This document shows, piece after piece, positions 286 to 41,543 of a DNA stretch of 64,000 nucleotides. The position numbers were made by a program, and so were the translations under genes. Under the pieces are notes generated by a model. The model saw only the letters and a program-made list of their open reading frames with translations. It had not been told where the DNA came from and ran no database searches. The stretch is from Escherichia coli (GTDB lineage: Bacteria > Pseudomonadota > Gammaproteobacteria > Enterobacterales > Enterobacteriaceae). Positions within the stretch are counted from its first letter, which is position 1; every line of letters begins with the position of its first letter. The DNA lies in the NCBI RefSeq assembly GCF_003019035.1, contig NZ_CP027447.1; one strand, written 5' to 3'.

Positions 286-359
286 TTTTTTATTCCATAT
301 AGCCAGAGAGCATGCTGTGAAATAGACTGCTCCAGATTTGATTAATAGATGCATTAATG

Positions 360-399
360 CACGCTACCGCCCCTGGCTTAACAGCTACCAGAGCACTGC
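360..399 (-). promoter_or_regulatory. JUMPStart element with ops site (GGCGGTAGCGTG on minus strand) in the leader of the O-antigen operon
   Basis: Plus strand reads cacgctaccgcc at 360-371, the reverse complement of the ops 12-mer; it lies upstream of the rfbB start on the minus strand. Confidence 0.7.
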
Positions 400-657: not shown

Positions 658-1551
658 TTACTCGCTTAACAGCTTCTCAATCCCTTTACGGAACTTCGCC
701 CCTTCTTTGAGGTTGCGTAGTCCATACTTCACAAATGCCTGCATATACCCCATTTTTTTACCGCAGTCGTAGCTGTCACCTGTCATCAGCATGGCATCAA
801 CGGACTGTTTTTTCGCCAGTTCAGCGATGGCATCAGTCAGCTGAATACGCCCCCATGCACCAGGCTGAGTGCGTTCAAGTTCCGGCCAAATATCTGCAGA
901 AAGCACATAGCGACCAACGGCCATGATGTCTGAGTCCAGCGTCTGCGGCTGATCCGGTTTTTCGATGAATTCAACAATGCGGCTGACTTTACCTTCGCGG
1001 TCCAGCGGCTCTTTGGTCTGGATGACAGAGTATTCAGAGAGGTCACCCGGCATACGTTTTGCCAGCACCTGGCTGCGGCCCGTTTCGTTGAAGCGCGCAA
1101 TCATGGCAGCAAGGTTGTAGCGCAGCGGGTCGGCGCTGGCGTCGTCGATCACAACGTCTGGCAGCACCACGACAAATGGATTGTCACCAATGGCAGGTCG
1201 TGCACATAAAATGGAGTGGCCCAAACCTAAAGGTTCGCCCTGACGCACGTTCATAATTGTCACGCCCGGCGGGCAAATGGACTGTACTTCCGCCAGCAGT
1301 TGACGCTTCACGCGCTGTTCAAGGAGAGATTCTAATTCATAAGAGGTGTCGAAGTGGTTTTCGACCGCGTTCTTGGAAGCGTGAGTTACCAGGAGGATTT
1401 CTTTGATCCCTGCAGCCACAATCTCGTCAACAATGTACTGAATCATTGGCTTGTCGACGATCGGTAGCATCTCTTTGGGAATCGCCTTAGTGGCAGGCAA
1501 CATATGCATCCCTAGACCCGCTACAGGAATAACTGCTTTTAAATTCGTCAT
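658..1551 (-). CDS. galF: UTP-glucose-1-phosphate uridylyltransferase regulatory paralogue GalF
   Basis: ORF-track protein [32 protein letters not shown]...; internal ATG at 1551 chosen over the 4-codon extension. Confidence 0.95.
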
Positions 1552-1725
1552 TATTTCATCCACCTGTAAAATGGTTGCTGAATTATAGCTTGTTCGATTT
1601 TTTTCGCCAGCATCAATTACCCTGAATTGATTACTGAATTACTTGTGATGTTACGCCGCTTCGTTGTGGATTGCAGTAGCATTGTTCCTAAGTATGACTC
1701 CATTTTTCCAGGAATGGTCGCAAAT

Positions 1726-3120
1726 CTACTCTCTCCGTTCCGGCAATCTAAAGTTAATCTTTTCCACATTAACAATATGGTGATTAATCCTGTCGATATC
1801 GACGGAGCTTTGTCCTTTTTCATTCACCGCATGAACATTTGCAAGAGACAGCAGTGTTTCTTTTTTCGCCATAAACACGCCGCGAACGTCTTTGCGCATG
1901 TCAAAGTTCATGCTCAATGCTGGTCCAACTGAGGATTCCTGCATCACCTTGATATTACGCATAAAAAGATGTTGCGGCTTGTTGTGTAACTCCAATGACG
2001 CACGCTTCATCTCAATGTTAGTCAGCGCCACAAAGGAGACAGCATTCCCGGCGGAGATTTGGATGCCGCGCAATTTATAAGCAAGGTGAGTGTTATCCAG
2101 TTGAATATTATTCACTCGGAAATTTTGCGGTATCGAGAGATATTTGCCTTTAATTACCCCATAGCCGATTAACATCCCGGCACTATTAATCATTTCAATA
2201 TTATCAATTACAAAGTTGTCACAACCATAAATAGCAACTGTGGCGTTATCAATACCTGCTTTCTTACTGAAATCTGGCGTGATATTACGAGCTTTGATAT
2301 TACGGATAACAAAATGTTTACCATTTTCAACATGGATCAGTTGCCGACAATCCGATCCCGTGATATTCGCCACAACAAAGTTTTTCACTGCCTGGTCTTC
2401 CGGGTAGTTGTTATCATAAGTGCTTCCCGCAAGACCTATGCCAATGCCCCAGTTGATTTTGCCGTTAGTACAGTTGATGCGCTCGATGACATGGTCAGAT
2501 ATCAAAATATCACGGTCGTTAATCGCCACGTTCCATTCAATAGCGTCGCCCTGTAAGTCACTGAACTTACAGTTGGTGATGTTGGCACCGATAATCTGAT
2601 TATGAAATCCCTGGCGTAAGATGGCGTAGTTAGCGTGGCTAACGGTGAGGTTATCGATGGTCAGGTTGCGCATGACCCGTTTGTTTTTGCCGCCGATATA
2701 GATCTGCGTCACCGGGCCAAAGCCGCTCATCACCAGCCCTTTGATGGTGCAGTCAGAACCACGCACATCCAGGGTGATGTTATGTATACTGCCGCCCTCC
2801 CCCCCTGTCACCTGGCTGCCGTCCTGTAAGACAAATCGCCCTCTGCCGTTGCCGCGCAGGCTTCCAAGGATGTGTAACGTTTTACCTGCAGGAATGAAGA
2901 TGCCGGTGTTGATATTGTCGCAAACCAATCCGGCGGGCACGACGACCGTTTGCCCTTCGCTGAAGGCTTGTTTAAATGAGGCGATCCAGTCGTGAGGGTT
3001 GTAGTCGTTAATGTTAACGCTTTGCCGGGCAGGAAGTGCACGGGCGAAAGGGGTATGGAGGAAGGCAAGCGCCGAGCTTGCCGTCAGGAAGGTGCGTCGG
3101 GAGAGTTTTTTAAATGGCAT
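1726..3120 (-). CDS. wcaM: Colanic acid biosynthesis protein WcaM (twin-arginine-like signal SRRTFL at N-terminus)
   Basis: 464-aa ORF; position as last gene of the wca operon before galF; N-terminal [20 protein letters not shown]. Confidence 0.9.
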
Positions 3121-3130
3121 GCGTTCTCCT

Positions 3131-4351
3131 CTATAAAGCCTGCAGCAAGCTGGCGAGTTCTCGATTAATCACCTGCTGGTTAAAATCGTGTTCGACTTTT
3201 TCGCGAGCACGTTTGACGACCGGAGCCAGTTCGTCGGTGTCCAGTTGGCTAAACGCCGCCAGTCGTTGCGCCAGTGCTCGAGCATCGTTCTCAGGCACCA
3301 GCCAGCCGGATTTGTCGGCCTCCACCAGTTCCGGTATTCCGCTATGCAGAGTAGAAACCACCGGAATGCCGACCGCCATTGCTTCCATCAGCGCCACCGG
3401 AATGCCTTCCATATCGCCGTCAGCACCCGTTACCGATGGCAACAGAAAGACATCCGCGTCGTCGAGCATCGCCTTCACTTCGTGGCTCGGTTTAAAGCCC
3501 GGCATCTCTACCACATCTTCCAGTTGATATTGTTCTATGAGGGTGCGCAGGCGTCGTTCCCACGGGCCAATGCCGAGGATGCGATAACGAAATGCCACGC
3601 CCTGCTCTTTCAACTGACGGCAGGCTTCGATCGCCACGTGCAGGCCTTTTTTCTCGGTTAAGCGTGCGACGGAAATGATTTCCAGCGGCGTTGCGGGCGC
3701 TTTCACCGGACGCGGGCTAAAACGCGTCATGTCCACGCCCATGCGCGATACGGCAATTTTTTCCCTCGGGCAGCCCATTTTTTGCAGCCTTCCGGCCCAC
3801 AGTTCGCTAATCGGTAACATCAAATCGCCACGACGAAACAGTTGTTGATATTCGGGAGTGTAATGGTTGAGCACTTCCCGACTGGAGATATCAATGCCGT
3901 GGAAGATAGTGGCAATTTTGCCGCGAATGACACCCAGTTCCCGTAGTTTTGCTGCGGTTACCCCCGCAGGGCCAAAATGTGCGATAAAGACATCGGCATA
4001 AAATGGTATTGCGACCTGACCACAAATGGCAGACAAAATCAGGTTCCGCGACTCTGCACCATAGCGTTTGAGGTTAAGCGCCTGCCAGGTATTTTTACGA
4101 TGAATACCGCGCAACGTCTGGCTGGCGCGGTGGCGCAGTTTCGCCACTTTGCCTTGTGGCTCGTCCTGTAACCAGCGGGTTCTGGCGGCAAGGTTATATT
4201 TTGTCCATGCCGCGTGGGTGTTTTGTGTGTCGCCTTTTTGCAGCGCGACAATCTCCACCTCAAAGCCCATATCAATAAACGCGGTAATTTGATTGAGGAC
4301 GAAGGTTTCCGACGACAGTGGAAATTTCAGTAAAAAGAAGCCGACCTTCAT
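3131..4351 (-). CDS. wcaL: Colanic acid glycosyltransferase WcaL (GT4 family)
   Basis: 406-aa ORF, glycosyltransferase-like sequence, conserved position in the cluster. Confidence 0.9.
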
Positions 4352-5628
4352 TTCGCCTCCCCGATGCGTTCAAGCACAGATTTCACCATCTGCATTCCCG
4401 TCTGACGTTCGCGGCTGACGGCTTCGTTAAGTCGCGTGTTCAGTGCCGGAAGCTGGCCTAAGGTATCCGCAACCATCGCTTGCAGGCTGCCGTCTAATAA
4501 ATGACGGATATCAATTGCCATCTCTGGTAGCCCCAGTTGTTGCATGATCCCGGCGGATTTATGTTCATAGTTGATGGCAATTGCCGGAGTGGCAAAGTTC
4601 ATCGAGATAATAGCCGAGTGCAGGCGCGTACCGACGGTGAGTTCACAGGCACCGAGAATTTTGCCCATTTCCAGATCGTTGAGTTCATCCATCACTACGT
4701 GATAACGGGCAGGATCGCTGATGTGCTGACGCAGGTTGAGCGCCACCATGCGGTCGTCTTTGTTATAGCTGTCGATGCCCGTACAGGTGGAGAGCGCAAT
4801 CACCTGATACCCTTCATCGAGAATGCGATTGACCACCCCGGCAAAGGCTTTTTCATACGCTTGTTGAGTGGTGCCGAGACGTTTGTCGAACGGTGCCAGT
4901 TCGCGCAGGGTAATTGCCACCGTTTTCTGTTGTGCGGCAACGTCCAGCCAGTGTTGAACGGCATAGCTGGCGGTGAAATCTTCTGTGTGGTGATCGACCA
5001 GCCATGCGGTATCGACCCCATGTTCGACTTTTGCGGTAGTGATATTGCTGTGTTTCATTAGTTCCAGGCTGACCGATTCGCGCAGGATCAGCGCGTCGCA
5101 GTGACCGAATACGTAGTTCGCCAGTTGGTTAAATTGCTCATCCTGGAACGGGCCGACGCTGTGACCAATCATAAACAGCGGCTTTTTCGCCATAAACGTG
5201 CAAAGCGCGTGTTCAAACTGCGGCACGCCGTAGAGATCAACAAAAAACGAACCGCCGACCTGGATAATGGCATCGTAACCTGAAAGCAGGCGCACAAAGT
5301 CAGTAAATCCCTGGGCAATGGCGATATTACGCAGCTTGCCAGTGTCGGTGACGCGTGAGAGCAATACCTGGTGCTGGTAGCGGCGACGGAGGACTTTTTT
5401 TACGCGCCCGACAACGCCCGCCGCGCTGTTGTGTTGTTTCATTTGCAGGAACAGCGGATCGCCCATTACCGGACGGTTGAGCAGCCAGGAAGAACTGACC
5501 GGATAGCGGCTCATTACGTCCACTTCGGCGTGTGGATTGAGGATGTTGATGGCATCAAGTAAGCCGCGCAAGATGGCGCTGTCGCCGCGATTGCCGCAAG
5601 TGTGGTTGCCCAGAATCAGTAATTTCAT
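4348..5628 (-). CDS. wcaK: Colanic acid pyruvyl transferase WcaK
   Basis: 426-aa ORF; 4-nt overlap with wcaL; cluster position. Confidence 0.9.
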   Translation of the reverse strand: MKLLILGNHTCGNRGDSAILRGLLDAINILNPHAEVDVMSRYPVSSSWLLNRPVMGDPLFLQMKQHNSAAGVVGRVKKVLRRRYQHQVLLSRVTDTGKLRNIAIAQGFTDFVRLLSGYDAIIQVGGSFFVDLYGVPQFEHALCTFMAKKPLFMIGHSVGPFQDEQFNQLANYVFGHCDALILRESVSLELMKHSNITTAKVEHGVDTAWLVDHHTEDFTASYAVQHWLDVAAQQKTVAITLRELAPFDKRLGTTQQAYEKAFAGVVNRILDEGYQVIALSTCTGIDSYNKDDRMVALNLRQHISDPARYHVVMDELNDLEMGKILGACELTVGTRLHSAIISMNFATPAIAINYEHKSAGIMQQLGLPEMAIDIRHLLDGSLQAMVADTLGQLPALNTRLNEAVSRERQTGMQMVKSVLERIGEAK

Positions 5629-5699
5629 TTTTTCCTCATAAATTTGATGCCAGGTGAGGTTATGTTGTTGTTTTTATTGCCGGTGCCTAAAACAACAAC

Positions 5700-7178
5700 T
5701 CACCCCGCCCGTAAAAGCATTTTCATTTTTTCGCTGCGACAAAACTGACGCTTCACTTCCACCACCAGCGGATGGCGCGACAACACAATCATCACCACAA
5801 ACGCCAGCACGCCTGCGGCTATTTGCACCGCCAGCAGCATCCCCAGCGCCAGTTGCCCTTTCAGCACAATGCCCAGCGCATAACTAACCACCAGCGTCGG
5901 CAGCGAGAGATAAAACGGCAGCCATAAACTCAGGATGTACTGGCGATAACTGGAACCGAGCACCGGTTTAATCATCACGAAATAGCTCAGAATGGTGTTG
6001 ATAATCTGCACCAGCAGGAAGCCGAGCGTGACGCCGATTGCGCCCGCCATCTGCCCACCAATAACAATCGCCGGAATAAACAGAAATGTTTTGAATACGT
6101 TGAATTTAAAGCTGATATCGACCCGCGCTTTCGCCATCAGCAGCGAACCAATCGGGTTCCCCACTGAGCGCAGCAGCCCCACCACACACAGCAATTGCAG
6201 CACCGGAATAATGCTGCTCCACTTCTCACCAAAGACCAGCGGTACAAAGTTATTCGACACCACCATCAGCCCCAGCAGCGCCGGAAAGTTGATAATCCCC
6301 ACCACCGACAGCAGCTTGTAGAAGTTGACGCGCAGCTTTTCGGTGTCGTCCTGAATTTTGGCAAACGCCGGAAACAACACGCGCGTGATGATTGGGTTCA
6401 GCTTCATCGGCGGCACAACGGCCACGTTGTACGCCAGGTTGTATCCCCCAGCTACGCCCGCGCCGAGAATACGCGCCAGCACCAGCGTTGAAAGGTTGGT
6501 ATTGAGATAGTTGATGATGCTGTCCGCCGTCAGCCAGGCACCAAAACGTAAGTTTGGTGCCACCGACGCCAGCGAGAAGTGCAGACCGGGGCGATAAATT
6601 TTGCGACCAAAGTAGCCAAACAGCAGCGTTCTTACCGCACTATTGACCAGATAACCGAGGATCGCGGTCATCGCCAGTGGCCAGAAATGGGCGCTAACCA
6701 CCGTAAAAGTGAAGCCCGCCAGCACCGCGCTGGTTTCGATCATGCCGATTTTGTTGAACTCCAGCTCTTTTTGCATCAACGCGCGGAACTGCTGCCCGTG
6801 GGGGATCACCACAAACGCCAGCGACAATGTTTTAATCAACGGTGCCAGGTCCGGATTATTCAGCATGTCGCCAATGGCATCACTCAACAAAAACACCGCC
6901 ACACACACCACAAGCCCCAGCCCAACGTTCAGCCAGTACAGCGTGGTGAGTTCAAGGTGGCTGATTTCTTTTCGCTGAATAATCGAGTTAGCGATACCGA
7001 AGTCAGAAAGCGTATCTGCCAGCGCGATGATCACCAGCGACACGGTAAGCAAACCGAACTGGTGGTTGTCGATAATCCGCGCCAGCACGGTCATCTGCAC
7101 CAGCCCGAGGCCGATGATGATCACCGTGGCAATCGCCGACCACTTCGCGCCGCTGATGGTTTTTTCACGTAAGCTCAT
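5700..7178 (-). CDS. wzxC: Colanic acid repeat-unit flippase WzxC (multi-pass membrane protein)
   Basis: 492-aa highly hydrophobic ORF; cluster position. Confidence 0.9.
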   Translation of the reverse strand: MSLREKTISGAKWSAIATVIIIGLGLVQMTVLARIIDNHQFGLLTVSLVIIALADTLSDFGIANSIIQRKEISHLELTTLYWLNVGLGLVVCVAVFLLSDAIGDMLNNPDLAPLIKTLSLAFVVIPHGQQFRALMQKELEFNKIGMIETSAVLAGFTFTVVSAHFWPLAMTAILGYLVNSAVRTLLFGYFGRKIYRPGLHFSLASVAPNLRFGAWLTADSIINYLNTNLSTLVLARILGAGVAGGYNLAYNVAVVPPMKLNPIITRVLFPAFAKIQDDTEKLRVNFYKLLSVVGIINFPALLGLMVVSNNFVPLVFGEKWSSIIPVLQLLCVVGLLRSVGNPIGSLLMAKARVDISFKFNVFKTFLFIPAIVIGGQMAGAIGVTLGFLLVQIINTILSYFVMIKPVLGSSYRQYILSLWLPFYLSLPTLVVSYALGIVLKGQLALGMLLAVQIAAGVLAFVVMIVLSRHPLVVEVKRQFCRSEKMKMLLRAG

Positions 7179-7179
7179 A

Positions 7180-8574
7180 TCAATATGCCGCTTTGTTAAC
7201 GAAGCCTTTGAATACCGTCAGGAAAACGATTTTGATATCGAACCAGACGCTCCATTCGCGGATGTACTCAAGGTCGAACTCGACGCGTTTTTCCATTTTC
7301 TCCAGCGTGTCGGTTTCGCCGCGCCAGCCGTTAATCTGCGCCCAGCCGGTAATGCCCGGTTTCACTTTATGGCGCAGCATGTAGCCTTCAATGAGCTGGC
7401 GATACTGTTCGTTATGCGCCACCGCATGCGGACGCGGACCGACAATCGACATCCCGCCAGTCAGCACATTGATAAACTGCGGCAATTCGTCCAGCGAGGT
7501 GCGGCGCAGAAAGTTCCCCACTTTGGTGACGCGCGGATCGTTCTGCGTCGCCTGAGTCACCACTTTGTCGTTCTCCATCACTTTCATCGAACGGAACTTC
7601 CACACTTTGATCGGCTTGCCATCCATGCCGTAGCGAGTCTGGCGAAAAATAACCGGCCCCGGTGAGCTCAGTTTCACCGCTAGCGCAATGCAGCACAGCA
7701 CCGGGGAGATCAGCAGCAGGATAAGCGTCGCCAGCACAATGTCTTCCGCACGTTTGAGCAGGCGGTTAACCCCGGAAAGCGGCGTGTCATACAGCGGCAC
7801 CACCGGTACGCCATTCATCTCTTCGAGGCGTGAATGGAGAATGTTGAAGGTAAAGACATCGGGGATCAGCAGCACCGAACAGGTGGTGTCCGCCAGTTGA
7901 TGGACCAGTTTTTTCACTCGCGCGCCGTCGCACATCTGCATCGCGATATAGACGTTATGAATCTTGCCCGCTTTCGCATCCTCGACCAGCTGTTGCAGAT
8001 TACCCGCCCAGTCGTTAGAAACGCCACCCGGTTTCGGGTCGTGGTAAACGCCCACCACTTCAAACCCTAACCACGGCTGATTACGGAAGCTCTCCATCAG
8101 CATTTGTCCGGCGGCTAAATCCCCCGCCACCGCGACCATGCGCTTGTTATAGCCATGATTACGCAGCCAGCCCGCCCCAATACGAATACATGAACGGCAA
8201 ACCACCAGTCCGATGCTGGTCAGCCCATACCACGCCAGCCAGATTTTCAGTTGCGTGTCGAAATCATTATTGAACGCCACCAGTCCGGCGCTGAAAATCA
8301 CGCTTAAGGTCCAGTTTTGTAGCAGCAGGGCAAATTCTGTCGCTGCCCGAACACCGCGCCATGAGCGATAAAAATCGGTGATGCCACCCAGCATCTGGAA
8401 CACCACCAGCGTAATCAGCGCCACCAACAGGTGCATGTAGAGGAATGACAGGCCGCTCACTTCGCAAACCAGCCATAGTCCGGCAAACATGATGGTGATA
8501 TCTGAAAAGCGTTGCACCATAGAGATTAACGATGCATTGGTTTTCGCTCGCTCGCGCTTTTTTAGATTTGTCAT
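7180..8574 (-). CDS. wcaJ: Undecaprenyl-phosphate glucose phosphotransferase WcaJ
   Basis: 464-aa ORF with N-terminal TM segments and C-terminal sugar-transferase domain (…PRPHAVAHNEQYRQLIEGYMLRHKVKPGITGWAQ…). Confidence 0.92.
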   Translation of the reverse strand: MTNLKKRERAKTNASLISMVQRFSDITIMFAGLWLVCEVSGLSFLYMHLLVALITLVVFQMLGGITDFYRSWRGVRAATEFALLLQNWTLSVIFSAGLVAFNNDFDTQLKIWLAWYGLTSIGLVVCRSCIRIGAGWLRNHGYNKRMVAVAGDLAAGQMLMESFRNQPWLGFEVVGVYHDPKPGGVSNDWAGNLQQLVEDAKAGKIHNVYIAMQMCDGARVKKLVHQLADTTCSVLLIPDVFTFNILHSRLEEMNGVPVVPLYDTPLSGVNRLLKRAEDIVLATLILLLISPVLCCIALAVKLSSPGPVIFRQTRYGMDGKPIKVWKFRSMKVMENDKVVTQATQNDPRVTKVGNFLRRTSLDELPQFINVLTGGMSIVGPRPHAVAHNEQYRQLIEGYMLRHKVKPGITGWAQINGWRGETDTLEKMEKRVEFDLEYIREWSVWFDIKIVFLTVFKGFVNKAAY

Positions 8575-8628
8575 CGTTGTTCCTGTTTTTAACCCCTTAC
8601 CCGCAGTGGGGTAAGGGAAGATCCGACA

Positions 8629-9999
8629 TTACTCGTTCAGCAACGTCAGCAGAGTTCGCGTTCGCGCTTCCATCAGCGGCACATCACCGCGCGATTCCAC
8701 ATTCAACCGCACCACCGGTTCGGTGTTGGAGGAGCGCAGGTTAAAGCGCCAGTCGGCAAAGGTCATGCTGATGCCATCGGTGCGATCCACCGCCAGCGCC
8801 TCACGGCTAAAATGCTGTTCCACGCGGTTAATCGCCTCAACGGGTTGCGCCAGTTTGCTGTTGATCTCACCGCTTGCCGGAAACGCTGCCATCCGGTCGC
8901 GCACCAGTTCGCCCAGCGTTTTTCCTTTCAGGCACACCAGTTCGGCGACCAGCAGCCACGGGATCATGCCGCTGTCGCAGTAAGCGAAATCACGGAAATA
9001 GTGGTGGGCGCTCATTTCGCCACCGTAGATGGCGTCTTCCTTGCGCATACGTTCTTTAATAAAGGCGTGTCCGGTTTTCGACATTACCGGGGTGCCGCCT
9101 GCGGCAGTCACCACATCAACGGTGTTCCAGGAGAGACGTGGATCGTGGATGATCTTCGCGCCGGGATTTTTTTCGAGGAACGCTTCTGCCAGCAGGCCGA
9201 CAATGTAGTAGCCCTCAATAAACTGCCCTTTTTCGTCAAACAGGAAACAGCGGTCAAAATCGCCATCAAAAGCAATGCCCATATCCGCGCCGTGTTTAAT
9301 GACCGCATTGCGGGTGTCGTCGCGACATTCCGGCAGCAACGGGTTAGGAATACCGTTGGGGAAATTGCCGTCCGGCGTGTTATGCACTTTGATTAACTCC
9401 ACCGGTGCGCCGAGGGCTTTAAAGCGGGCTTCGATGGCGTCCACCACCGGACCCGCTGCGCCGTTCCCGGAGTTGATCACCAGCTTGAGCGGCGTAAGGT
9501 TTTTGATATTGATATAACCGAACAGGTGATCAACGTATGCATCACGCAGGTTGATTTGCTGATAGCGACCGCGTTTGGTTTCATCAACGGGAGGAAAGTC
9601 GTTGGCTTCTGCCAGACGCTGGACGTCGCGCAGTCCGGTATCGCCGCTGATCGGGCGAGCCCCTTCGCGCACCAGCTTCATGCCGTTGTAATCCATCGGG
9701 TTATGGCTGGCGGTAACTTCGATGCCGCCATCCACGCCGAGATGGAACGTGGCGAAATAGATTTCTTCGGTGCCGGACATACCGATATCCAGCACATCGA
9801 CGCCCGCATCCTGTAAACCTTTCGCCAGCGCCAGTTTTAAGGTTTCGCTGGTGAGGCGGACATCACCGCCTAACACAATGGTTTTCGGTTTGAGAAATTC
9901 GCCATAGGCGCGACCAATGCGCCAGGCGATATCTTCATTCAGTTCTTCGCCTAATTTCCCGCGAATATCATAGGCTTTAAAGCAGGTTAATTTTTTCAT
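8629..9999 (-). CDS. cpsG: Phosphomannomutase
   Basis: Protein [19 protein letters not shown]… with phosphohexomutase active site TASHNP; start taken at internal ATG 9999 rather than ORF-track extension. Confidence 0.93.
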
Positions 10000-10099
10000 G
10001 TCGTTACCCTTTTTCAGGCAATAGTTGGCCCTGACCGAAACGGCCAATTTTGTTTTTTCGTTATTTACCGGAGAATTAATCCGGTTGATTATTCAACGG

Positions 10100-11536
10100 C
10101 TACACCCGTCCGTAGCGATCCGCGAAGCGCACCACATCATCCTCTTCGAGATAAGAGCCGGAGCGCACTTCAATTAAATCGAGCGGAATTTTCCCCGGGT
10201 TTTCCAGGCAGTGCGTCGCCCCCAGCGGAATATAAATGGACTCGTTTTCACCAAGCAGTTTGATATCACCGTCAATGGTGACTTTTGCCGTTCCCGCGAC
10301 CACTACCCAGTGTTCCGCGCGGTGATGGTGCATCTGTACCGACAAGCCCTCGCCCGGTTTCACGGTGATGCGTTTCACCTGGTAGCGATCGCCCGCGTCG
10401 ATAGAGTCATATTTGCCCCACGGGCGATACACTTCGCGATGCACCCGATGCTCATGGCGACCATCGGCTTTGATCTGCTCGACCACTTTTTTCACATCCT
10501 GAACCGCGTTACGGTCGGCAATCAGCACCGCATCTTTGGTCTGCACTACCACCAAATCTTTCACCCCGACGGTGGTGACCAGGCCAGATTCGGCATACAC
10601 ATAGCTGTTTTCGGTTTTGTGATTAATCACATCACCGTGGCAAACGTTGCCCTCGGCGGTGTGGGCGCTGATCTCCCATAAAGAGGACCAGGAGCCGACA
10701 TCGCTCCAGCCTGCATCCATCGGCACCACAACGGCATCTGCCGTTCGTTCCATGACCGCGTAATCCACCGACTCTTCCGGGCAGGCCAGAAACGCTTCTT
10801 CATCCACACGAATAAAATCGAGATCCGGATCGACGGCGCTCATCGCTTTTTCACAGGCGTCGAGAATATCCGGGCGATATTTTTTCAGTTCTTCGAGATA
10901 GCATCCGGCGCGGAACAGGAACATGCCGCTGTTCCAGTAATATTCGCCGCTTGCTACATAGGCCTGGGCGGTTTCCAGATTCGGTTTTTCGACAAACTGC
11001 GCCACTTCAAAGGCCACCGTATCCTGCTCACCCGCAGACACTTCACCGCGACGAATATAGCCATATCCGGTTTCAGGTAGATCCGGCACAATGCCGAAGG
11101 TCACCAGCTTGCCCGCTTCGGCATATGGCATGGCATTACGCACGGCGGCACGGAACGCGTCTTCATCGGCAATCACATGATCCGCCGCCAAGACCAGCAT
11201 TAACGGGTCGCTCTCCGGGCTATGACGTTTTGCCGCCAGCGCCGCCAGCGCAATGGCAGGTGCAGTGTTACGCCCTGCCGGTTCGAGAATAATGTTCTCG
11301 GTGAGTTTATTCAGTTGACGCAGCTGTTCCGCGACAATAAAGCGGTGCTGCTCATTGCAAATCACCACCGGGCTTTCGCACTCCACGCCGTTCAGGCGGC
11401 AGATGGTGGTTTGCAGCATGGTGAGATCGCCTTTCAGGCATAAAAACTGCTTGGGATAAAGTACGCGGGAAAGCGGCCATAAGCGGCTACCGGAGCCACC
11501 TGCCATCACAACTGGATAGAGTTTCGACTGCGCCAT
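10100..11536 (-). CDS. cpsB: Mannose-1-phosphate guanylyltransferase
   Basis: 478-aa [27 protein letters not shown]… (nucleotidyltransferase G-rich loop) with C-terminal cupin. Confidence 0.93.
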
Positions 11537-11538
11537 AA

Positions 11539-12762
11539 TTATCCCCGAATATCATTTATAAATTGACGTAACACGTTCTCTTTATCGAGCGTGCGTTCGG
11601 CATATTCACGTGCCACCGTGTTGTGTTTGGGCAGCAGGAGCGCCTGACGGATCCCCGCCACCAGCGCCTCGACCGATTCCGGTTCTACGCAAACCGCAAT
11701 GCCCGGAAAGGTTTCGCAAAGCTGTCCCAGTTCTGTGTGGGCTTCAGCAGTAATCACCGCGTTACCGCCTACCGCCAGAATATTGGTCAGTTTCGACGGC
11801 AATACGGCATCTGCCGCGCCGCGTTTTTGCACCACCAGATGGCAATCCCCCATCTTCAGCAGTGCGGGTAAAGCGTCATACGATTGCAGCGGGAAAAATT
11901 GCATGTTGCGCAGTCCACGCTGCTGCGCCATTTTTTCCAGCCGCGCTTTGCCGCCGCCCTGCCCGACAATGGCAAAAATCAGCGGTTCATCGCGCAGACG
12001 ATCGGCAGCTTCAATAACGTTTTCCAGCCCCTGCTTTTCACCAATATTGCCGGAGTAAAGAATGATTTTTTTGTTATCCGGCAGGTCAAGCTGGTTACGA
12101 AGGGCGTCAACATCGGCATCTGCAACATGCTGAAAACGGGCAATTTCCGACCAGTTGGGGAAGAAGATGACGTTTTCCGCCGCCACGCCTTTTTCGATGG
12201 CTTTATTCATCATCGAACGCGAAATCGTGGAGACGTTATCGACGTTATTCAGTCCGCTACGTTCGAACGCCGTTGCCAGCTGTGCCACTTTGCCGCCTTT
12301 GCCTTTTCCGGCAAGGCCCAGCCCCAGCATGGCGTCCACTTCGTAATCCTGAATATGTAGCACCGTGCGCGCACCAGACAGTTTCGCCAGCAGGCGCATT
12401 CCCGGCGTGCAAAACAGCGTTGGTACCACGCCGATAATGCGATCCGGCTTCCAGCGACGTTGCGCCATCAGCGGAAAGAAACTGCTGGCGGCAAAACTGC
12501 CGAGATGCAACAGGCGTTTCAGGGTGCTCGGCTGTTTTGGTACGTACAGCGGGCAGCGCCACACCGTGGCGGCCCCCTCTTCTCGTTTGTACCGCCAGGC
12601 GGAATAGTTCTCGCCCACCTGCCATTGCGGGTAGTAAGGCGGTGCGGTAATAACCCGCACCTCATGACCTTGTGCCGCCAGCCATTCCACCATCTCGCCG
12701 GTGTACTTGCCGATGCCGGTTAACTCCGGCGAGTAGTTAATGCCGTAGACCAGTATTTTCAT
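11539..12762 (-). CDS. wcaI: Colanic acid glycosyltransferase WcaI
   Basis: 407-aa GT-B like ORF; cluster position. Confidence 0.9.
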
Positions 12763-13241
12763 AATCCGGGTACTCCGGCACGCTTCTCAGCGAGAAAATA
12801 GGCGCGGCTGTTAGCGTGAACATTGTCACTGGCGAGCAACGCGTCCGGCGTCAGCCAGCGGTAATCGTCATGCTGCTCATCCGGCAGTAACAGCTCTTCT
12901 TCCGCTACTCTGATGCGAAAACCGAGCACCACATAGTGAGTGGTAAAATCCGAGCCGGAGAAGTTATCGTCATAAAAGTGCTGCCAGACACCGTAAAACT
13001 GGCCTGCTGTTATCGGCAGACGCAACCCCAGTTCCGCAAGCGTCAGCCGCTCAAATGCGGCTTCCAGCGTTTCGTCTTTCTGCACGCGCCCTCCCGGCAC
13101 AAACCAGTAACCCTGCGCCGGGCGGTTGGTTCTTTTGCCAAGCAGAAACTCGCCGCGACTGTTCTCGACAATAAAGTCGAGAGAGACAAGCGGTGTGGAG
13201 CGCACTACCGTGGCAAAGTCTTCCTGACGTAAAAACATCAT
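12759..13241 (-). CDS. gmm: GDP-mannose mannosyl hydrolase (Nudix); start may be the second Met at 13238
   Basis: 160-aa ORF with Nudix box ([23 protein letters not shown]). Confidence 0.9.
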
Positions 13242-14206
13242 TACCCCCGAAAGCGGTCTTGATTCTCAAGGAACCACTGGTAAGTGCTGGCAAGCCCCGC
13301 TTCCAGTGAGATTTCGTGATACCAGCCAAGCTGATGCAGGCGCGTCACATCCAGCAGTTTGCGCGGCGTACCATCCGGTTTACTGGCATCAAAAACCACC
13401 CGACCTTTGTAACCCACCACTTTGGCGATGGTTTGCGCCAGCTCGCGGATAGTGCAGTCAACGCCCGTGCCGACGTTAATGTGCGACAGCATCGGTTGGG
13501 TGTTCTCCAGCCAGACTTCGTGCGCCAGCTCCATCACATGAATGCTTGCCGCCGCCATATCATCGACATGCAGAAATTCACGCATCGGTGTACCGCTGCC
13601 CCATACCACCACGTCCGGCGCATTCTGTGCCGTCGCCTCGTGGAAGCGACGCAGCAATGCAGGGATCACATGCGAATTACTCGGGTGGAAGTTGTCATGC
13701 GGGCCATACAGGTTGGTCGGCATGACAGAGCGGTAATCGCGTCCGTACTGGCGGTTGTAAGATTCGCACAGTTTGATCCCGGCGATTTTGGCAATGGCGT
13801 ATGGCTCGTTGGTCGGCTCCAGCGTGCCCTGTAACAGCTCGCTTTCTGCCATCGGCTGTTTTGCCAGTTTTGGGTAGATACAGGACGATCCGAGAAACAG
13901 CAGTTTGTTGACGTCGTTCTGATGCGCGGCGTGAATGATGTTGCTCTCAATCATCATGTTCTGGTAGATGAAATCTGCCGGATATGTGTTGTTGGCAACA
14001 ATGCCGCCCACTTTCGCCGCCGCCAGATAGACCTGGTCAATGCGTTCGCTGGCAAAGAAATCATGCACGGCGCGGCTGTCCAGCAGGTTCAGCTCGTCGC
14101 GGGTACGTAATACCAGTTCCACATCACCGCGCTGTTCGAGCTGACGGGTGATAGCGGAACCGACCATCCCGCGATGACCAGCAATAAAAATGCGTTGTTT
14201 ACTCAT
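13241..14206 (-). CDS. fcl: GDP-L-fucose synthase
   Basis: 321-aa SDR-type [22 protein letters not shown]…. Confidence 0.93.
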
Positions 14207-36465: not shown

Positions 36466-38412
36466 TCAGCAGCGGCTTAAATCAGCCTGCGCCTGAGCCA
36501 GTTTTTCTGCCGCCTGACGTAGCGGCTCCATCAACGGCATGGTCCGTGCTGGAGCATGAAGGCGGAATCGCTGCAACTCTGTCGCACCGACAGTCAACGC
36601 CGATTCCAGCCGATGTCGTTTGGCGGCCATTTTAGTCAGTACCGCTTGTCTGTCTGCTGGCGTTACCGCTTCATTCGGCCTGAACACAAAACGGCGTTCG
36701 CAACTCGCTTTCCAGTCGATAACCGCCTGTGTCAGATGATCACCAAACCCTTTCACTTGCTTAACGCCACGACGGGTAACATCTGCGGCGGTTTCAATAC
36801 CAAAAGACCGTAACGCCGCTTTACGCGCTGGGCCTACGCCGGGAATAGAGGCAGCATCGATAAAAAATCCCTCCAGAAACTTCTGCTTCTGCCGTTCCCT
36901 TGCGTTGTCCTGAAGTGCTGCCAGAGCGCGTTTCTCCTCTTCCGGTAACCCAAGAATTTCGTCCTTCATTTTTTCGAGCATCGTCCGTTTGGCTATAAAA
37001 CCTTCCTGCCCGCCCAACTGTTGGATCTGGCTGACTAAATGGTCATAGTCCATTTTCGCGCGATTAAACGCCTCACGGCGTTGCTGGATTTCTGCTTTGT
37101 ACGCTTTGCTTGTCAGGCTGCCAATAATCCAGATAGCCGACAGCACAGGAACCAAAATAATATAACGTGGTTCTGTCTGAAGGCCGCAAAGCAACAGCGA
37201 TAACGCTGACAGTGCGATCTCAATCAGAATGATGTATTCACGCCGTAACAGGCCTAAAGGAAGCGGCCTGCCAGTCGGTTGGAAATGATCGGGTAATGGC
37301 AGTTGCAATGCTGGCGGTGCTACTGACGCCATCACCATCGCCCAGACTTTCGCCAGCACAAAATCACCGCTGGTGGTAATGACCTCTTCGCCGAGATCAA
37401 TAAAATAGATAACGCCTTGATTATCCAGAGCACACCACGGGCAGTCAGCCAAATGACCGGGATAAACATGCATTGCCGAAACGGTACATTTCTTTAACTG
37501 TTGGCGTAGTAAATCAAGTGCCGCTACCCACGCTTTTGCCGTCGGACGCCCGGTTGCCACGCCACTTTCCGTGAATGCCTGCTGAAACATGGCTTCAACA
37601 TCGCCCGGTAACATCGACAGCGGAATAGATCGTGGCGGCGGTTTTAAACCACGTCGCTGATTATCTGACGCGTAGGCATAACGGAAATGGGCAATATCCG
37701 TCTCCAGTGCATTACCCGCATCAGAGACAAGCGGTACACCGGAATAAGGATGCCGCCCACCAAACAAGACGTGAAAAATCAGCAACGCAAGGCCAAAATT
37801 ATCGTGATTCGCGGTGCGTTCAAAGCCAACAAATGACGACAAGGTTTGCAGCTCTGGCGACGTAAAATGCGACACGCCCACTTCGCATAAATGCAGCGTT
37901 CCATTGGCGTTAATCTGAAAGGAGTCGCTATCAATCAACACCACTTTGCTGTCACGGCCTACCATAAAGCTGTTCTGGTTTACGTCACCCACGACGTGCC
38001 CGTGCTCGTGAACCGTAGCAAAAGATGAAGCAATATTGCGCGCAACATAGAGGAGAAAATCCCACGCACAATGAGGGTAACTCTGACGACGATGTGCCGG
38101 GCTATAGATCATATGAATCGGTTCTTTACCTGAAACCTTCGGCATCATAAAACCGATAACCTTTCCGCCTCGTCCACCGTGAAGCGTTGCCTGCGGCCAG
38201 GCGACATAATTCAACAACTGCGCGTCAGCTGTCGCAGCCATAAAGGCAAGTTTGTCCTGTTTTAAGGCGGGTGGCGGCGTGTGATAAATCTTGGCGACGC
38301 TATCGGCAAACTCCTCGATATCATAAACCGCACCTTCACCGCCTTTGCCCAGTTCACGGCCGAGAGTGGTCAATTCACCTGTCGATGTAAATACTTTTAT
38401 ATTTGTCTTCAT
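36466..38412 (-). CDS. yegI: Atypical Ser/Thr protein kinase YegI (N-terminal kinase-like domain, central TM segments, C-terminal helix-hairpin-helix-like region)
   Basis: 648-aa ORF; Gly-rich loop GKGGEGAVY, catalytic-loop-like HVVGDVNQNS, TM stretch …ILIEIALSALSLLLCGL…, C-terminal …IPGVGPARKAALRSFGIETAADV…. Confidence 0.88.
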   Translation of the reverse strand: MKTNIKVFTSTGELTTLGRELGKGGEGAVYDIEEFADSVAKIYHTPPPALKQDKLAFMAATADAQLLNYVAWPQATLHGGRGGKVIGFMMPKVSGKEPIHMIYSPAHRRQSYPHCAWDFLLYVARNIASSFATVHEHGHVVGDVNQNSFMVGRDSKVVLIDSDSFQINANGTLHLCEVGVSHFTSPELQTLSSFVGFERTANHDNFGLALLIFHVLFGGRHPYSGVPLVSDAGNALETDIAHFRYAYASDNQRRGLKPPPRSIPLSMLPGDVEAMFQQAFTESGVATGRPTAKAWVAALDLLRQQLKKCTVSAMHVYPGHLADCPWCALDNQGVIYFIDLGEEVITTSGDFVLAKVWAMVMASVAPPALQLPLPDHFQPTGRPLPLGLLRREYIILIEIALSALSLLLCGLQTEPRYIILVPVLSAIWIIGSLTSKAYKAEIQQRREAFNRAKMDYDHLVSQIQQLGGQEGFIAKRTMLEKMKDEILGLPEEEKRALAALQDNARERQKQKFLEGFFIDAASIPGVGPARKAALRSFGIETAADVTRRGVKQVKGFGDHLTQAVIDWKASCERRFVFRPNEAVTPADRQAVLTKMAAKRHRLESALTVGATELQRFRLHAPARTMPLMEPLRQAAEKLAQAQADLSRC

Positions 38413-38612
38413 AATGTTTCAAGGGCAGTCATATTATATTTCAATGAATAATAACACTTCCCATTATAATTATTTCTATATTGGAAGAGTCCAACTCAAG
38501 AATAAAAATGATAATGCAATTTCATCAGGATACAATTCAATTCCAACCTGATAATGATTCACTTCCACAGGTTTTTTGCTAACTTTTACTACACAGGGAT
38601 TCTGGAGAAAAA

Positions 38613-39074
38613 ATGAAAAAGATATTACTTATGTTGAGTCTGCTATTTTTTACTACCGCAAGCTATTGTGAGATTTCGGATACGTTAGTGACAGGAGGTT
38701 ATGATAAAAAGGCGATGTCTGACGCGATTAAACATGCGCGGAAAGAAACCGATCAATTCATCGAAGTTATGAATAAAAAAGATGCTGATACTTTCGCGGT
38801 CAAAGCCCCGATAACCGATCGCGGAGAAACCGAGCATTTCTGGCTCACGGATGTCACTTATTCTAACGGCATGTTTATTGGTATAATAAGCAATGACCCT
38901 GGTATTGTTACAAACGTAGAATATGGCCAGGAGTGGAAAATCAAGAAAGAAGATATTTCAGACTGGATGTATACGCGCGGGGATAAAATTTACGGTGGTT
39001 ATACCATTGATCCTTTATTGGTCACCTATCCAAAAGAAGAAGCCGACGAGCTAAGAGCAAAATTAGTTCGCTAG
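38613..39074 (+). CDS. yegJ: Small secreted protein YegJ (signal peptide)
   Basis: 153-aa ORF MKKILLMLSLLFFTTASYC…; RBS ggag 7 nt upstream; AT-rich. Confidence 0.85.
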   Translation: MKKILLMLSLLFFTTASYCEISDTLVTGGYDKKAMSDAIKHARKETDQFIEVMNKKDADTFAVKAPITDRGETEHFWLTDVTYSNGMFIGIISNDPGIVTNVEYGQEWKIKKEDISDWMYTRGDKIYGGYTIDPLLVTYPKEEADELRAKLVR

Positions 39075-39138
39075 CCAGCCATTATATTGATTGCTTAAAC
39101 TGGCGGTTGAACCGTTGTATTCAACCGCCATGCGATGT

Positions 39139-39900
39139 TCATTCTGTCCACATAGCCAGTGCTAACGTTTTATCATCATCGGTACGCTCGTTTACCGCTG
39201 GGCTGGACAAAAACTGCTTTAACAATTCAGGTAATAAATCGAGTTGTTCCTGCGTTGCTGACGCCAGTCCATTGAAAAACGGGGTAAAGAAAGGCACATG
39301 CGGAGAATTATCCAGCATATTTAACGCCAGTCTCTGAATACCATCCGTAAATGCTGCAACTCTATGCGCACGCTCAGTGCTGGTGAAAGTTTCCAGTCTG
39401 AAAACGGCATCTTCATCGGTAATGAAATGCGTCATGTTGGCATATTCACCCACCATCGGCGTGAGAGGCAATTGCAGACCGTGACCCAAATCTACCACCA
39501 CGCCGCCATCGCCAATCTGCATAATCAAGGTGCCGTCAGGCGATGAAATCAGTCCCAGAAATGTGCAGGCAAAATCGCGAACCGCTAATTCTTTGGCTTC
39601 CGCCTCGGCAAAAAGTCGCTGACGAACGGTCAGCACAATATCCGTTGCGAGGACATCATTAAGCCCCAATTCCCCGCCCTGCACTTTTTGCATCATATAA
39701 GCCATCGCTTCATTGACGGCAAGCGTCGCACCTTCGCCACCCTGCGAAACGCTGCCTGCGCCATCAGCGACAAATACCGTCAATAATGGCTGCTGGTCTT
39801 CTAGCCAGGCAACCTGCATCTGGCAGGCATCCTGGCAAGGCAAGTCCGCGCTGATGTGCGACGTTCCAACGGTTGATGCATAGACCAGACGCCAGCTCAC
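39139..39900 (-). CDS. yegK: PP2C-family Ser/Thr protein phosphatase YegK (PphC)
   Basis: 253-aa ORF with PP2C-like DGAGS motif; overlaps yegL by 4 nt. Confidence 0.88.
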
Positions 39901-40556
39901 ACTGACGTCCAGCCTTTTGGCGCTTCCAGCACAACTTCCGTTCCCGGCGTGGAGCGGGAAACCGAACGCAGCGAACTGGATAACCAGCTAAATAGTTCGC
40001 GGAATTGTAATCCTTGAAGAGGCAAAGGCTGACGAACGCTGATTTGGGCCAGCGTCTTCATATCCGCCCCCTGAACACCGATGGAAAAGAAGGCAAACTT
40101 CTTATCTTCTTCCCCCTGAAACACCTTGTTGGCAGCAGCCTGCCACTCATCGGTTGGTGCGCCATCGGTAATCAGGAAAATCCACGGACGATAATAGGAA
40201 ATACCATTGGCGCGATACTCACGTTTGCGCTCCTCAACCATATTCAGGGCTTTGGTAATGGCGGCGCCCATTGGTGTATCCCCATGGGCAAACAGGATGG
40301 GCGGGAAAAAATTAGCGGCGCTGGTAAAGGGTTGTTCCACATGCACTGGGCCGAACGTCACAATACCGAGTTCCACTCTTTTTAAGGCCAGCGGGTCGGC
40401 AAGCAGCTCATCGCGAAAGGTAACCAATCCGGCGTTAAGTTCATTAATGGGTCTACCGTTCATAGAACCAGAAACATCCAGCAGCAAAATGCAGGGGCAA
40501 CGTGGTTCCGGGTTACTGGCAAAATCGCTGGTGGCAAACGTGATTTGTTCGCTCAT
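39897..40556 (-). CDS. yegL: von Willebrand factor A (vWA) domain protein YegL
   Basis: 219-aa ORF; MIDAS motif [11 protein letters not shown]. Confidence 0.88.
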
Positions 40557-40736
40557 AAGAAATCCTTTCTTAGAGAATTATTGAGGTCCGGTATCATACC
40601 GATTGCAATAATGAAATAAGAGCAAACGAAGAAACTTTCAGAATTAGGCCCGGCGGCGCAGAAAATTTTGCTATTCGCCTCGCAAGAACGGAGAGCCGTC
40701 GATTGACACTAAGGGCGGAGTGACATAATTTCAGGA

Positions 40737-40886
40737 GTGAGGGTTAGGGAGAGGTTTCCCCCTCCCCCTGGTGTTCTTAGTAAGCCTGGAAGCTAATCAC
40801 TAAGAGTATCACCAGTATGATGACGTGCTTCATCATAACCCTTTCCTTATTAAAAGCCCTCTTCTCCGGGAGAGGGTTTCCCGTTT
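40737..40886 (+). ncRNA. sibA: Sib antisense sRNA (type I antitoxin), copy 1; ends approximate
   Basis: -35 ttgaca (40703-40708), 17-bp spacer, -10 taattt (40726-40731); intrinsic terminator gccctcttctccgggagagggtttcccgtttc ending ~40886; fully antisense to ibs ORF. Confidence 0.6.
40777..40836 (-). CDS. ibsA: Type I toxin IbsA-like, 19 aa (MMKHVIILVILLVISFQAY)
   Basis: Reverse-complement translation; SD aaggaaag upstream; differs from remembered K-12 IbsA by one residue (P17Q). Confidence 0.8.
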   Translation of the reverse strand: MMKHVIILVILLVISFQAY

Positions 40887-41071
40887 CAGCGTCCCGCTGA
40901 AATCGTCGGCTTACCTCCTTTCGCCCTGAATGCAGTCTATCGCTAACGCGTGAACAAAATAGTTTCCTCTGTGATTATTCCGTAACGACTCGCAAAGAAT
41001 ATTTGCTGGCAGGATCGCAGACTACAAAGCCTGCGGATTGACAATCTTATCGTGAAGGCATAATTTCAGGA

Positions 41072-41214
41072 GTGAGGGTAGAGCGGGGTTTCCCCCGCCC
41101 TGGTAGTCTTAGTAAGCGGGGAAGCTTATGACTAAGAGCACCACGATGATGAGTATCTTCATCATGACCCTTTCCTTATTTATGGCCCCTTCCTCGGGAG
41201 GGGCTTTCCCGTTT
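41072..41214 (+). ncRNA. sibB: Sib antisense sRNA, copy 2; ends approximate
   Basis: -35 ttgaca 41038-41043, -10 taattt 41061-41066; terminator hairpin ggcccctcctcgggaggggc + ttcccgtttc (41184-41214). Confidence 0.6.
41109..41165 (-). CDS. ibsB: Type I toxin IbsB-like, 18 aa (MMKILIIVVLLVISFPAY)
   Basis: Reverse-complement translation with SD; hydrophobic Ibs-family peptide. Confidence 0.8.
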   Translation of the reverse strand: MMKILIIVVLLVISFPAY

Positions 41215-41399
41215 CAGCGTCCCGCTGAAATCGTCGGCTTACCTCCTTCTGTCCTGTATGCAGTCTATCGCTGACTTGCGGATAAAATAGTTTCCAATGT
41301 GATTATTGCGTAACGTCTCGCAAAGAATATTTGCTGGCAGGATCGCAGACTGCAAAGCCTGCAGATTGACAATATTATCGTGAAGGCATACTTTCAGGA

Positions 41400-41543
41400 G
41401 TGAGGGTAGAGCGGGGTTTCCCCCGCCCTGGTAGTCTTAGTAAGCCGGGAAGCTTATGACTAAGAGCACCACGATGATGATCCACTTCATCATGACCCTT
41501 TCCTTATTTAAGGCCCCTTCCTCGGGAGGGGCTTTCCCGTTTC
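41400..41543 (+). ncRNA. Sib antisense sRNA, copy 3; ends approximate
   Basis: -35 ttgaca 41366-41371, -10 tacttt 41389-41394; terminator hairpin 41512-41543. Confidence 0.55.
41437..41493 (-). CDS. Type I toxin Ibs-family, third copy, 18 aa (MMKWIIIVVLLVISFPAY)
   Basis: Reverse-complement translation; same frame/SD as copy 2 but with Trp at position 4. Confidence 0.7.
   Translation of the reverse strand: MMKWIIIVVLLVISFPAY

Follow-up and report, generated by a model that had tools for sequence, protein, structure and literature searches.

The window analysed here, that is, the whole 64,000-nucleotide stretch of Escherichia coli contig NZ_CP027447.1 (assembly GCF_003019035.1), carries yegI, an already characterised gene for an inner-membrane Hanks-type Ser/Thr kinase that belongs to the yegL(vWA)-pphC(PP2C)-yegI operon. 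The best overall explanation of the evidence, to which we assign a probability of about 0.55, is that YegI is the kinase of a triad similar to the TerY-phosphorylation (TerY-P) systems, that a double helix-hairpin-helix domain, (HhH)2, at the tip of its cytoplasmic tail would bind nucleic acid, and that the triad would act as a stress or anti-phage switch. The target matters given that YegI is among the few Ser/Thr kinases of E. coli and that the HhH domain is the best-conserved domain of a very large family. Over the open reading frame, the DNA matches an E. coli SCU-301 gene, annotated as "yegI: protein kinase YegI", at 100% identity, and the minus strand holds the sole long frame, the plus-strand translation of the same interval (36466-38412) being riddled with stops. 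Residue numbers in the window equal the REL606 numbers used in the literature plus 2, since the window allele encodes 648 amino acids and the REL606 allele 646.

A first-pass annotation made from the letters alone had singled out a divergent kinase domain, membrane segments and a C-terminal HhH-like region; the peptides that it quoted are all present in the translation, at positions that we verified, on the minus strand, which it had not given. Hairpins IPGVG (523-527) and KGFG (554-557) lie within ...FFIDAASIPGVGPARKAALRSFGIETAADVTRRGVKQVKGFGDHLTQAVIDW... of the tail. Because the sequence evidence for an HhH fold in E. coli YegI taken alone is weak, relatives were gathered. A single-sequence search of the PDB sequences with the tail returned only noise (toxin repeats, Pumilio, E>0.1). 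Searched against representatives of 50%-identity clusters, the tail (residues 436-648) retrieved 2083 of them at E<=1e-3, of which 1277 also pass E<=1e-10; the matches nearly always cover the full module of about 205 residues. Conservation was then measured in 56 full-length sequences, namely, the window YegI and 55 representatives with 32-50% identity to it.

The AlphaFold2 model of the tail built from the 56-sequence alignment A2 (mean pLDDT 96.6) consists of helical arms, a compact unit at residues 514-582 and a long helix at 585-647, and the model of residues 501-583 alone (alignment A4) reaches a pLDDT of 90.1; in the predicted structure, helices flank both G-h-G hairpins. Foldseek comparison of the domain model retrieved the N-terminal domains of Dmc1, Rad51 and RadA with probabilities of 0.93-0.97 (E 0.3-1), along with DisA, ComEA, UvrC and the C-terminal domain of RNA polymerase α. 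The solved HhH domains that the YegI domain matches are those of NusA, Hef, Y-family polymerases, Rad51/RadA and DisA. When the domain profile was compared with PDB sequences, the top matches, all marginal, were HhH proteins (the Pol IV/DinB thumb at 0.007, REV1 at 0.019 and eL32 at 0.02, with UvrC at 1.2), and the profile aligned IPGiGparkaaLrsfGIetAaDV with Pol IV IPGVGKVSAAKLEAMGLRTCGDV. Within the family, Pfam HHH_5 matches 26 of the 56 sequences at E<=0.1 and 3 at <=0.001, with a best value of 2.2e-5. From these models and comparisons, we are highly confident that the predicted fold of the tail is HhH, in line with the first-pass annotation, and the structure prediction specifies it as (HhH)2. 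From the lengths of the helices and from matches to coiled-coil folds, we further infer that the two arms form an antiparallel coiled-coil stalk of about 9-10 nm, with (HhH)2 at the membrane-distal tip.

The (HhH)2 domain is the best-conserved region of YegI in these alignments, with a mean identity of 51% across the 56 sequences, followed by the kinase domain (47%), the zinc-knuckle region (38%), the returning coiled-coil arm (31%), the first arm (26%) and the transmembrane (TM) hairpin (13%). Among the hairpin glycines, G527 is present in 56/56, G555 in 55/56 and G557 in 54/56 sequences; A542 and W567 show no variation or almost none. Judged by the conservation of these three glycines and by the wide retrieval achieved with the C-terminal module, the sequence features of YegI are not due to chance. 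In the 56-sequence domain alignment (A4), a basic residue occupies the positions of R530 and K568 in 95-98% of the sequences and that of K531 in 80%, and the domain core carries, on average, a net charge of +3. The presence of both G-h-G hairpins with basic residues following them is typical of HhH domains that bind the nucleic acid backbone. Given that YegI retains both features, nucleic-acid binding is favoured, though not proven, and we consider it probable that the (HhH)2 domain binds nucleic acid.

The rather unlikely alternative is that (HhH)2 and the stalk are a protein-protein or oligomerisation module rather than a nucleic-acid binder, one that would dimerise YegI for trans-autophosphorylation or dock YegL, PphC or substrates in the manner of NusA AR2, the C-terminal domain of the RNA polymerase alpha subunit or SAM domains. 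The HhH derivatives NusA AR2 and SAM domains, which bind proteins, have however lost the G-h-G signature, whereas in YegI both hairpins keep the canonical form, hairpin 1 is directly followed by conserved basic residues and the average net charge is +3. The best-scoring matches at the sequence level are, moreover, DNA-contacting HhH motifs, those of Y-family polymerases and REV1, and other TerY-P kinases bear OB-fold or Zn-ribbon tails, which are predicted nucleic-acid binders, at the same position (PMC11090510). When overproduced, both YegI and YegL were scored as "DNA-damage-up" proteins (Xia et al., 10.1101/354589); no published link between that result and the HhH domain is apparent.

In some metagenomic relatives of YegI, which are 780-1010 amino acids long, the HhH/coiled-coil module leads directly into an extra TM segment, beyond which come TPR and bacterial SH3 domains (P0201 at L006 1865-4885, P0259 at L007 6001-9033, P0152, P0167, P0178, P0196 and P0209). 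The relatives with a third TM segment add 150-360 residues with TPR and SH3 (P0201, for example, has 1006 residues), and P0250, P0253 and P0259 are without the TM hairpin and have the later TM segment only; the long relatives remain in vWA-PP2C-kinase operons. The HhH module of these variants lies between the kinase and a probable extracytoplasmic sensor, which suggests that it is an integral signalling element and not an appendage.

The kinase domain is divergent, as the first-pass annotation held. All 56 sequences share K41, D143, N145, D161, D163, S164 and E187, four of which are kinase essentials, K41 being the ATP-anchoring lysine, D143 the catalytic aspartate, D161 the metal-binding aspartate and E187 the APE-type glutamate; the positions of the Gly-rich loop, G22-K-G24-G25-E-G27, are kept in 51-55 of the 56. 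At the catalytic-loop position where Asn is canonical, E. coli YegI has Ser148 and 37/56 relatives have Asn, and the metal-binding motif reads DSD or DCD rather than DFG. Pfam Pkinase has no match in the full E. coli protein; the same model matches relatives of 32-50% identity at up to 1.1e-9 and is also found in their precomputed Pfam annotation. The weak matches of the YegI kinase domain itself are to LanL/LanKC (NCBIfam) and to PD-T4-6 kinases (PADLOC). Activity has been published: YegI is an active Ser/Thr kinase despite the VGDxxQxS catalytic loop and the DSD in place of DFG (Rajagopalan & Dworkin, 10.1101/819920; FEBS Lett 2020). It autophosphorylates on Ser with second-order kinetics, is staurosporine-sensitive and depends on Mn2+/Mg2+, and its phosphosites are Ser residues of the activation segment plus two C-terminal Ser, REL606 S602 and S644, that is, S604 and S646 in the window; the essential REL606 Ser162 corresponds to the invariant Ser164 (10.1101/819920). 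The same laboratory reported that PphC (YegK) dephosphorylates YegI (10.1101/303594).

The membrane segments, likewise noticed at first pass, appear as two strong Kyte-Doolittle peaks separated by a periplasmic loop consisting only of QTEPR; beyond them, one 19-residue window (351-369) is borderline at 1.64, the cut-off being 1.6. Published PhoA-LacZα fusions agree, those at REL606 positions 340, 390, 439 and 646 being cytoplasmic and those at 414 and 432 periplasmic or TM (10.1101/819920), where REL606 E390, R414, T432 and E439 are E392, R416, T434 and E441 of the window. The N- and C-termini of YegI are both cytoplasmic (10.1101/819920), and the tail, with its cytoplasmic fusions at 439 and 646, does not lie in the periplasm.

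For YegI, kinase identity, the unusual motifs, the two-pass topology and the HhH label were all already known. COG4248 and the NCBI and JGI product names label the protein as a kinase with a helix-hairpin-helix DNA-binding domain, NCBI names many YegI orthologues "helix-hairpin-helix domain-containing protein", and the annotation was cited in a 2013 paper (PMC3861447). For YegI, the label exists only as database annotation: the term helix-hairpin-helix has 0 occurrences in the YegI preprint (10.1101/819920), which ignored the last 210 residues of the protein. Given that kinase and topology are published and HhH is in public annotation, the combination of a membrane kinase with HhH is already on record, and the initial observation as stated goes no further than the literature and the databases. 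We found no literature linking HhH, PP2C, VWA, kinase and phage. The evidence assembled here turns the function of YegI into a specific hypothesis, namely, that the tail would be a DNA sensor in a TerY-P-like switch.

The likeness to TerY-P extends to the protein itself. Just C-terminal of the kinase domain, YegI contains a zinc-knuckle- or Zn-ribbon-like Cys/His motif; its residues C309, H315, C324, W326 and C327 do not vary in any of the 56 sequences, nor in alignment A1, and the YegI preprint makes no mention of this motif (10.1101/819920). TerY-P kinases are fused to a C-terminal zinc ribbon (PMC11090510), and the YegI motif is probably the same Zn ribbon. A three-gene unit of vWA, PP2C and Ser/Thr kinase is, according to papers that cite the work, the TerY-P triad of Anantharaman, Iyer & Aravind (2012).

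About eight related triad loci were sampled, and the order vWA, PP2C_2, kinase holds in every one that shows the upstream genes (L002, L003, L004, L006, L007, L008/9 and pQBR103). The first triad gene matches Pfam VWA in L002-L004, L006 and L007, a 220-amino-acid gene occupies the same position in L008/L009, and the first gene on pQBR103 is 61% identical to YegL, in which the MIDAS motif is intact (DVSGS, residues 27-31). The triads of L002 and L003 sit in apparent defence islands. On the Pseudomonas megaplasmids (L011 and L008; ~425-430 kb), the triads are found among small hypothetical genes and genes for RNase HII, a TraR/DksA zinc-finger protein and HU. A YegI homologue is present in 82 plasmid records, most of which come from Agrobacterium, Rhizobium, Pseudomonas and Sinorhizobium; 46 of the 82 are typed as conjugative. 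In phage genomes searched by tblastn, homologues are essentially absent, with one partial, kinase-only match, and we therefore reject a phage origin of yegI.

Anti-phage activity has been shown solely for TerY-P systems other than yegL-pphC-yegI. A TerY-P system with an OB-fold kinase tail protects against T7-like phages (PMC11090510; Gao et al. 2020), and the Pseudomonas aeruginosa TerY-P protects against Autographiviridae, with most infected cells surviving. A defence role of yegL-pphC-yegI is possible, at what we would put at somewhat less than even odds.

Several observations weigh against the proposed TerY-P-like, nucleic-acid-binding switch. With respect to the fold, Pfam HHH_5 matches E. 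coli YegI weakly (i-E 0.0083 on the full protein and 0.0016 on the tail), the Foldseek E-values are all 0.3 or higher, and the stalk geometry was deduced from fold matches and secondary structure rather than by inspecting coordinates. With respect to DNA, many unrelated proteins also score in the DNA-damage overproduction screen (10.1101/354589). With respect to the system, PADLOC v2 does not recognise the E. coli proteins as TerY-P (YegL matches the TerY model at E 0.019, PphC has no match and YegI matches generic kinase models only) and likewise finds no TerY-P membership for three distant triads; because these models fail, we call yegL-pphC-yegI TerY-P-like and not a member of the tested subtype. 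In E. coli, the triad consists of core genes and is not island-borne, yegI being matched in 5410 of 5426 complete genomes; the genes are barely expressed in the laboratory, yegI having been seen only weakly, in stationary phase; and in the strain of the window, yegJ interrupts the pphC-yegI operon, whose genes otherwise overlap.

The core distribution and the stationary-phase expression, together with the ordinary chromosomal neighbours (alkA, yegD, dgcE and mdtABC) and the failure of PADLOC to give a defence-system match for YegL or PphC, fit a different proposal, namely, that the triad is a housekeeping or stress module, for example, in stationary-phase or envelope signalling, that is unrelated to phage defence, and in which the HhH tail would hold the kinase at the nucleoid or on RNA so that it phosphorylates substrates locally. 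We consider this proposal unlikely, given that relatives are carried by conjugative plasmids and megaplasmids, that other relatives adjoin BrxR, JetB, GmrSD and AbiJ-like genes, and that protection against phages has been demonstrated for TerY-P-type vWA-PP2C-kinase triads.

Under the TerY-P-like switch that we prefer, the (HhH)2 tip would bind DNA or another nucleic acid close to the inner membrane by its sugar-phosphate backbone, irrespective of sequence. Several YegI molecules on one polymer would be brought to a higher local concentration, which would promote the second-order trans-autophosphorylation on the activation segment. Active YegI would then phosphorylate YegL, other targets or both, PphC would reset the switch by dephosphorylation, and the triad would most likely serve as a TerY-P-type signalling switch in stress or phage defence. 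A bolder version, which we consider improbable, is that YegL-PphC-YegI is a widespread, unrecognised TerY-P-like immune or stress switch, the kinase being a membrane-tethered sensor for incoming DNA. The (HhH)2 domain, about 10 nm below the inner membrane, would detect an injected phage genome, a plasmid or transforming DNA, and contact with the DNA would lead to kinase clustering and phospho-signalling. If this were true, the E. coli core genome would hold a defence-type system missed by the PADLOC models used here.

Table 1. Features of yegI and its neighbours in the window (window coordinates), and related triad loci in other genomes.
Feature	Location	Strand	Details
yegI coding sequence	36466..38412	minus	ATG start, 648 amino acids + stop; open reading frame list and translation
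Divergent Hanks-type Ser/Thr kinase domain	37513..38370	minus	~residues 15-300; motifs, conservation, weak profile matches
Gly-rich loop GKGGEGAVY	38323-38349	minus	residues 22-30
Catalytic loop HVVGDVNQNS	37969-37998	minus	residues 139-148
DSDS replacing DFG	37921-37932	minus	kinase domain
Zn-knuckle/Zn-ribbon-like motif C309-x5-H315-x8-C324-P-W-C327	37432..37488	minus	residues 309-327, just C-terminal of kinase domain
TM segment 1, YIILIEIALSALSLLLCGL	37180..37236	minus	residues 393-411; Kyte-Doolittle peak 2.31
TM segment 2, YIILVPVLSAIWIIGSLTS	37108..37164	minus	residues 417-435; Kyte-Doolittle peak 1.94
First arm of predicted cytoplasmic stalk	36874..37104	minus	residues 437-513; helices 437-467, 469-487, 489-513
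Predicted (HhH)2 domain	36664..36873	minus	residues 514-583; hairpin 1 I523-P-G-V-G527, connector SFGIETAADV, hairpin 2 V553-K-G-F-G557
Returning arm of predicted stalk	36472..36660	minus	residues 585-647, single long helix; AlphaFold2 helix 150-212 of the fragment; contains the published phosphosites S604 and S646
yegJ	38613..39074	plus	opposite-strand insertion between pphC and yegI; low GC
pphC (yegK)	39139..39900	minus	PP2C-like phosphatase partner of YegI; annotation
yegL	39897..40556	minus	vWA-domain protein, first gene of triad; annotation
Triad locus L002	Piscinibacter aquaticus VOPW01000001.1, 1-11266		neighbours SLFN-like helicase, MazG, ScoMcrA_N/NOV_C, HIT, SNase, BrxR (WYL), JetB
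Triad locus L003	NCBI genome assembly, 1276-13950		GmrSD upstream; 1419-amino-acid NERD-double-kinase protein downstream
Triad locus L004	NCBI genome assembly		AbiJ_NTD5 close by
Triad loci L006, L007	metagenomic contigs		triad present
Triad loci L008/L009	430-kb replicon, L008 = CP182240.1		triad present
Triad locus L011	Pseudomonas megaplasmid pQBR103, NC_009444.1 174668-178030		complete triad

The gene order around yegI in the window is dgcE(+), alkA(-), yegD(+), yegI(-), yegJ(+), pphC/yegK(-), yegL(-), three ibs/Sib loci and mdtA. The proximity of alkA, itself the gene for an HhH-GPD glycosylase, was dismissed as a coincidence because this adjacency is absent from all non-E. coli loci. The yegJ gene and its flanks (window 38413-39138) have a GC content of 33-40%, versus 50-56% in pphC and yegI; yegJ is absent from every non-E. 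coli triad locus examined and is outside the conserved triad. It has been stated that yegJ is confined to K strains (PMC13232886); this claim is too narrow, given that 1924 of the 5426 complete E. coli genomes carry the gene, among them O157:H16 and the non-K-12 strain of the window.

The first codons of yegI vary among strains, as indicated by the many E. coli genomes that align to positions 1-1896 of the query only, the 5' end of the gene being window 38362-38412, and by the majority of orthologues having 646 rather than 648 amino acids. We presume that the strains with a differing 5' end are those in which pphC and yegI overlap and yegJ is lacking. In the 90-95% identity band, yegI is found in 1076 E. 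coli genomes, versus 8 for yegD. Diversifying selection on yegI was considered and not adopted: identity in a spread sample is continuous from 94.9 to 97.5%, and the differences are concentrated at the 5' end, in strains for which the match breaks off about 50 nucleotides before it.

The interval between yegL and mdtA contains three tandem SIB RNA antitoxin genes on the plus strand (40703-40851, 41038-41180 and 41366-41508; Rfam RF00113, 141-150 bits), which lie opposite three open reading frames annotated as ibs toxins. K-12 presumably has two copies at this locus (sibA/sibB), such that the strain of the window appears to carry one additional SIB copy.

Compared with known systems, yegL-pphC-yegI resembles TerY-P in gene order, in the MIDAS motif of YegL, in the Zn-ribbon-like Cys/His motif that trails the kinase and in the defence neighbours at some loci; the kinases differ in that YegI has a TM hairpin and a predicted coiled-coil/(HhH)2 tail, whereas the tested TerY-P kinase has an OB fold. 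With PknB and PrkC, which are receptor-type Hanks kinases of bacteria, YegI shares an N-terminal cytoplasmic kinase, a membrane anchor, autophosphorylation of the activation segment and a partner PP2C phosphatase. Unlike these kinases, E. coli YegI is without an extracytoplasmic sensor, such as PASTA, and re-enters the cytoplasm, so that its putative HhH sensor would be intracellular; among the relatives, only some distant ones add the third TM segment with TPR and SH3, in contrast to the E. coli protein. ComEA is membrane-anchored, with its HhH domain in the periplasm. None of the proteins with (HhH)2 of the HHH_5 type (DinB/Pol IV, REV1, Pol kappa, Rad51/RadA, Hef/XPF/ERCC1, DisA, ComEA and UvrC) presents the domain in the context of a kinase and a membrane-anchored stalk that is predicted for YegI.

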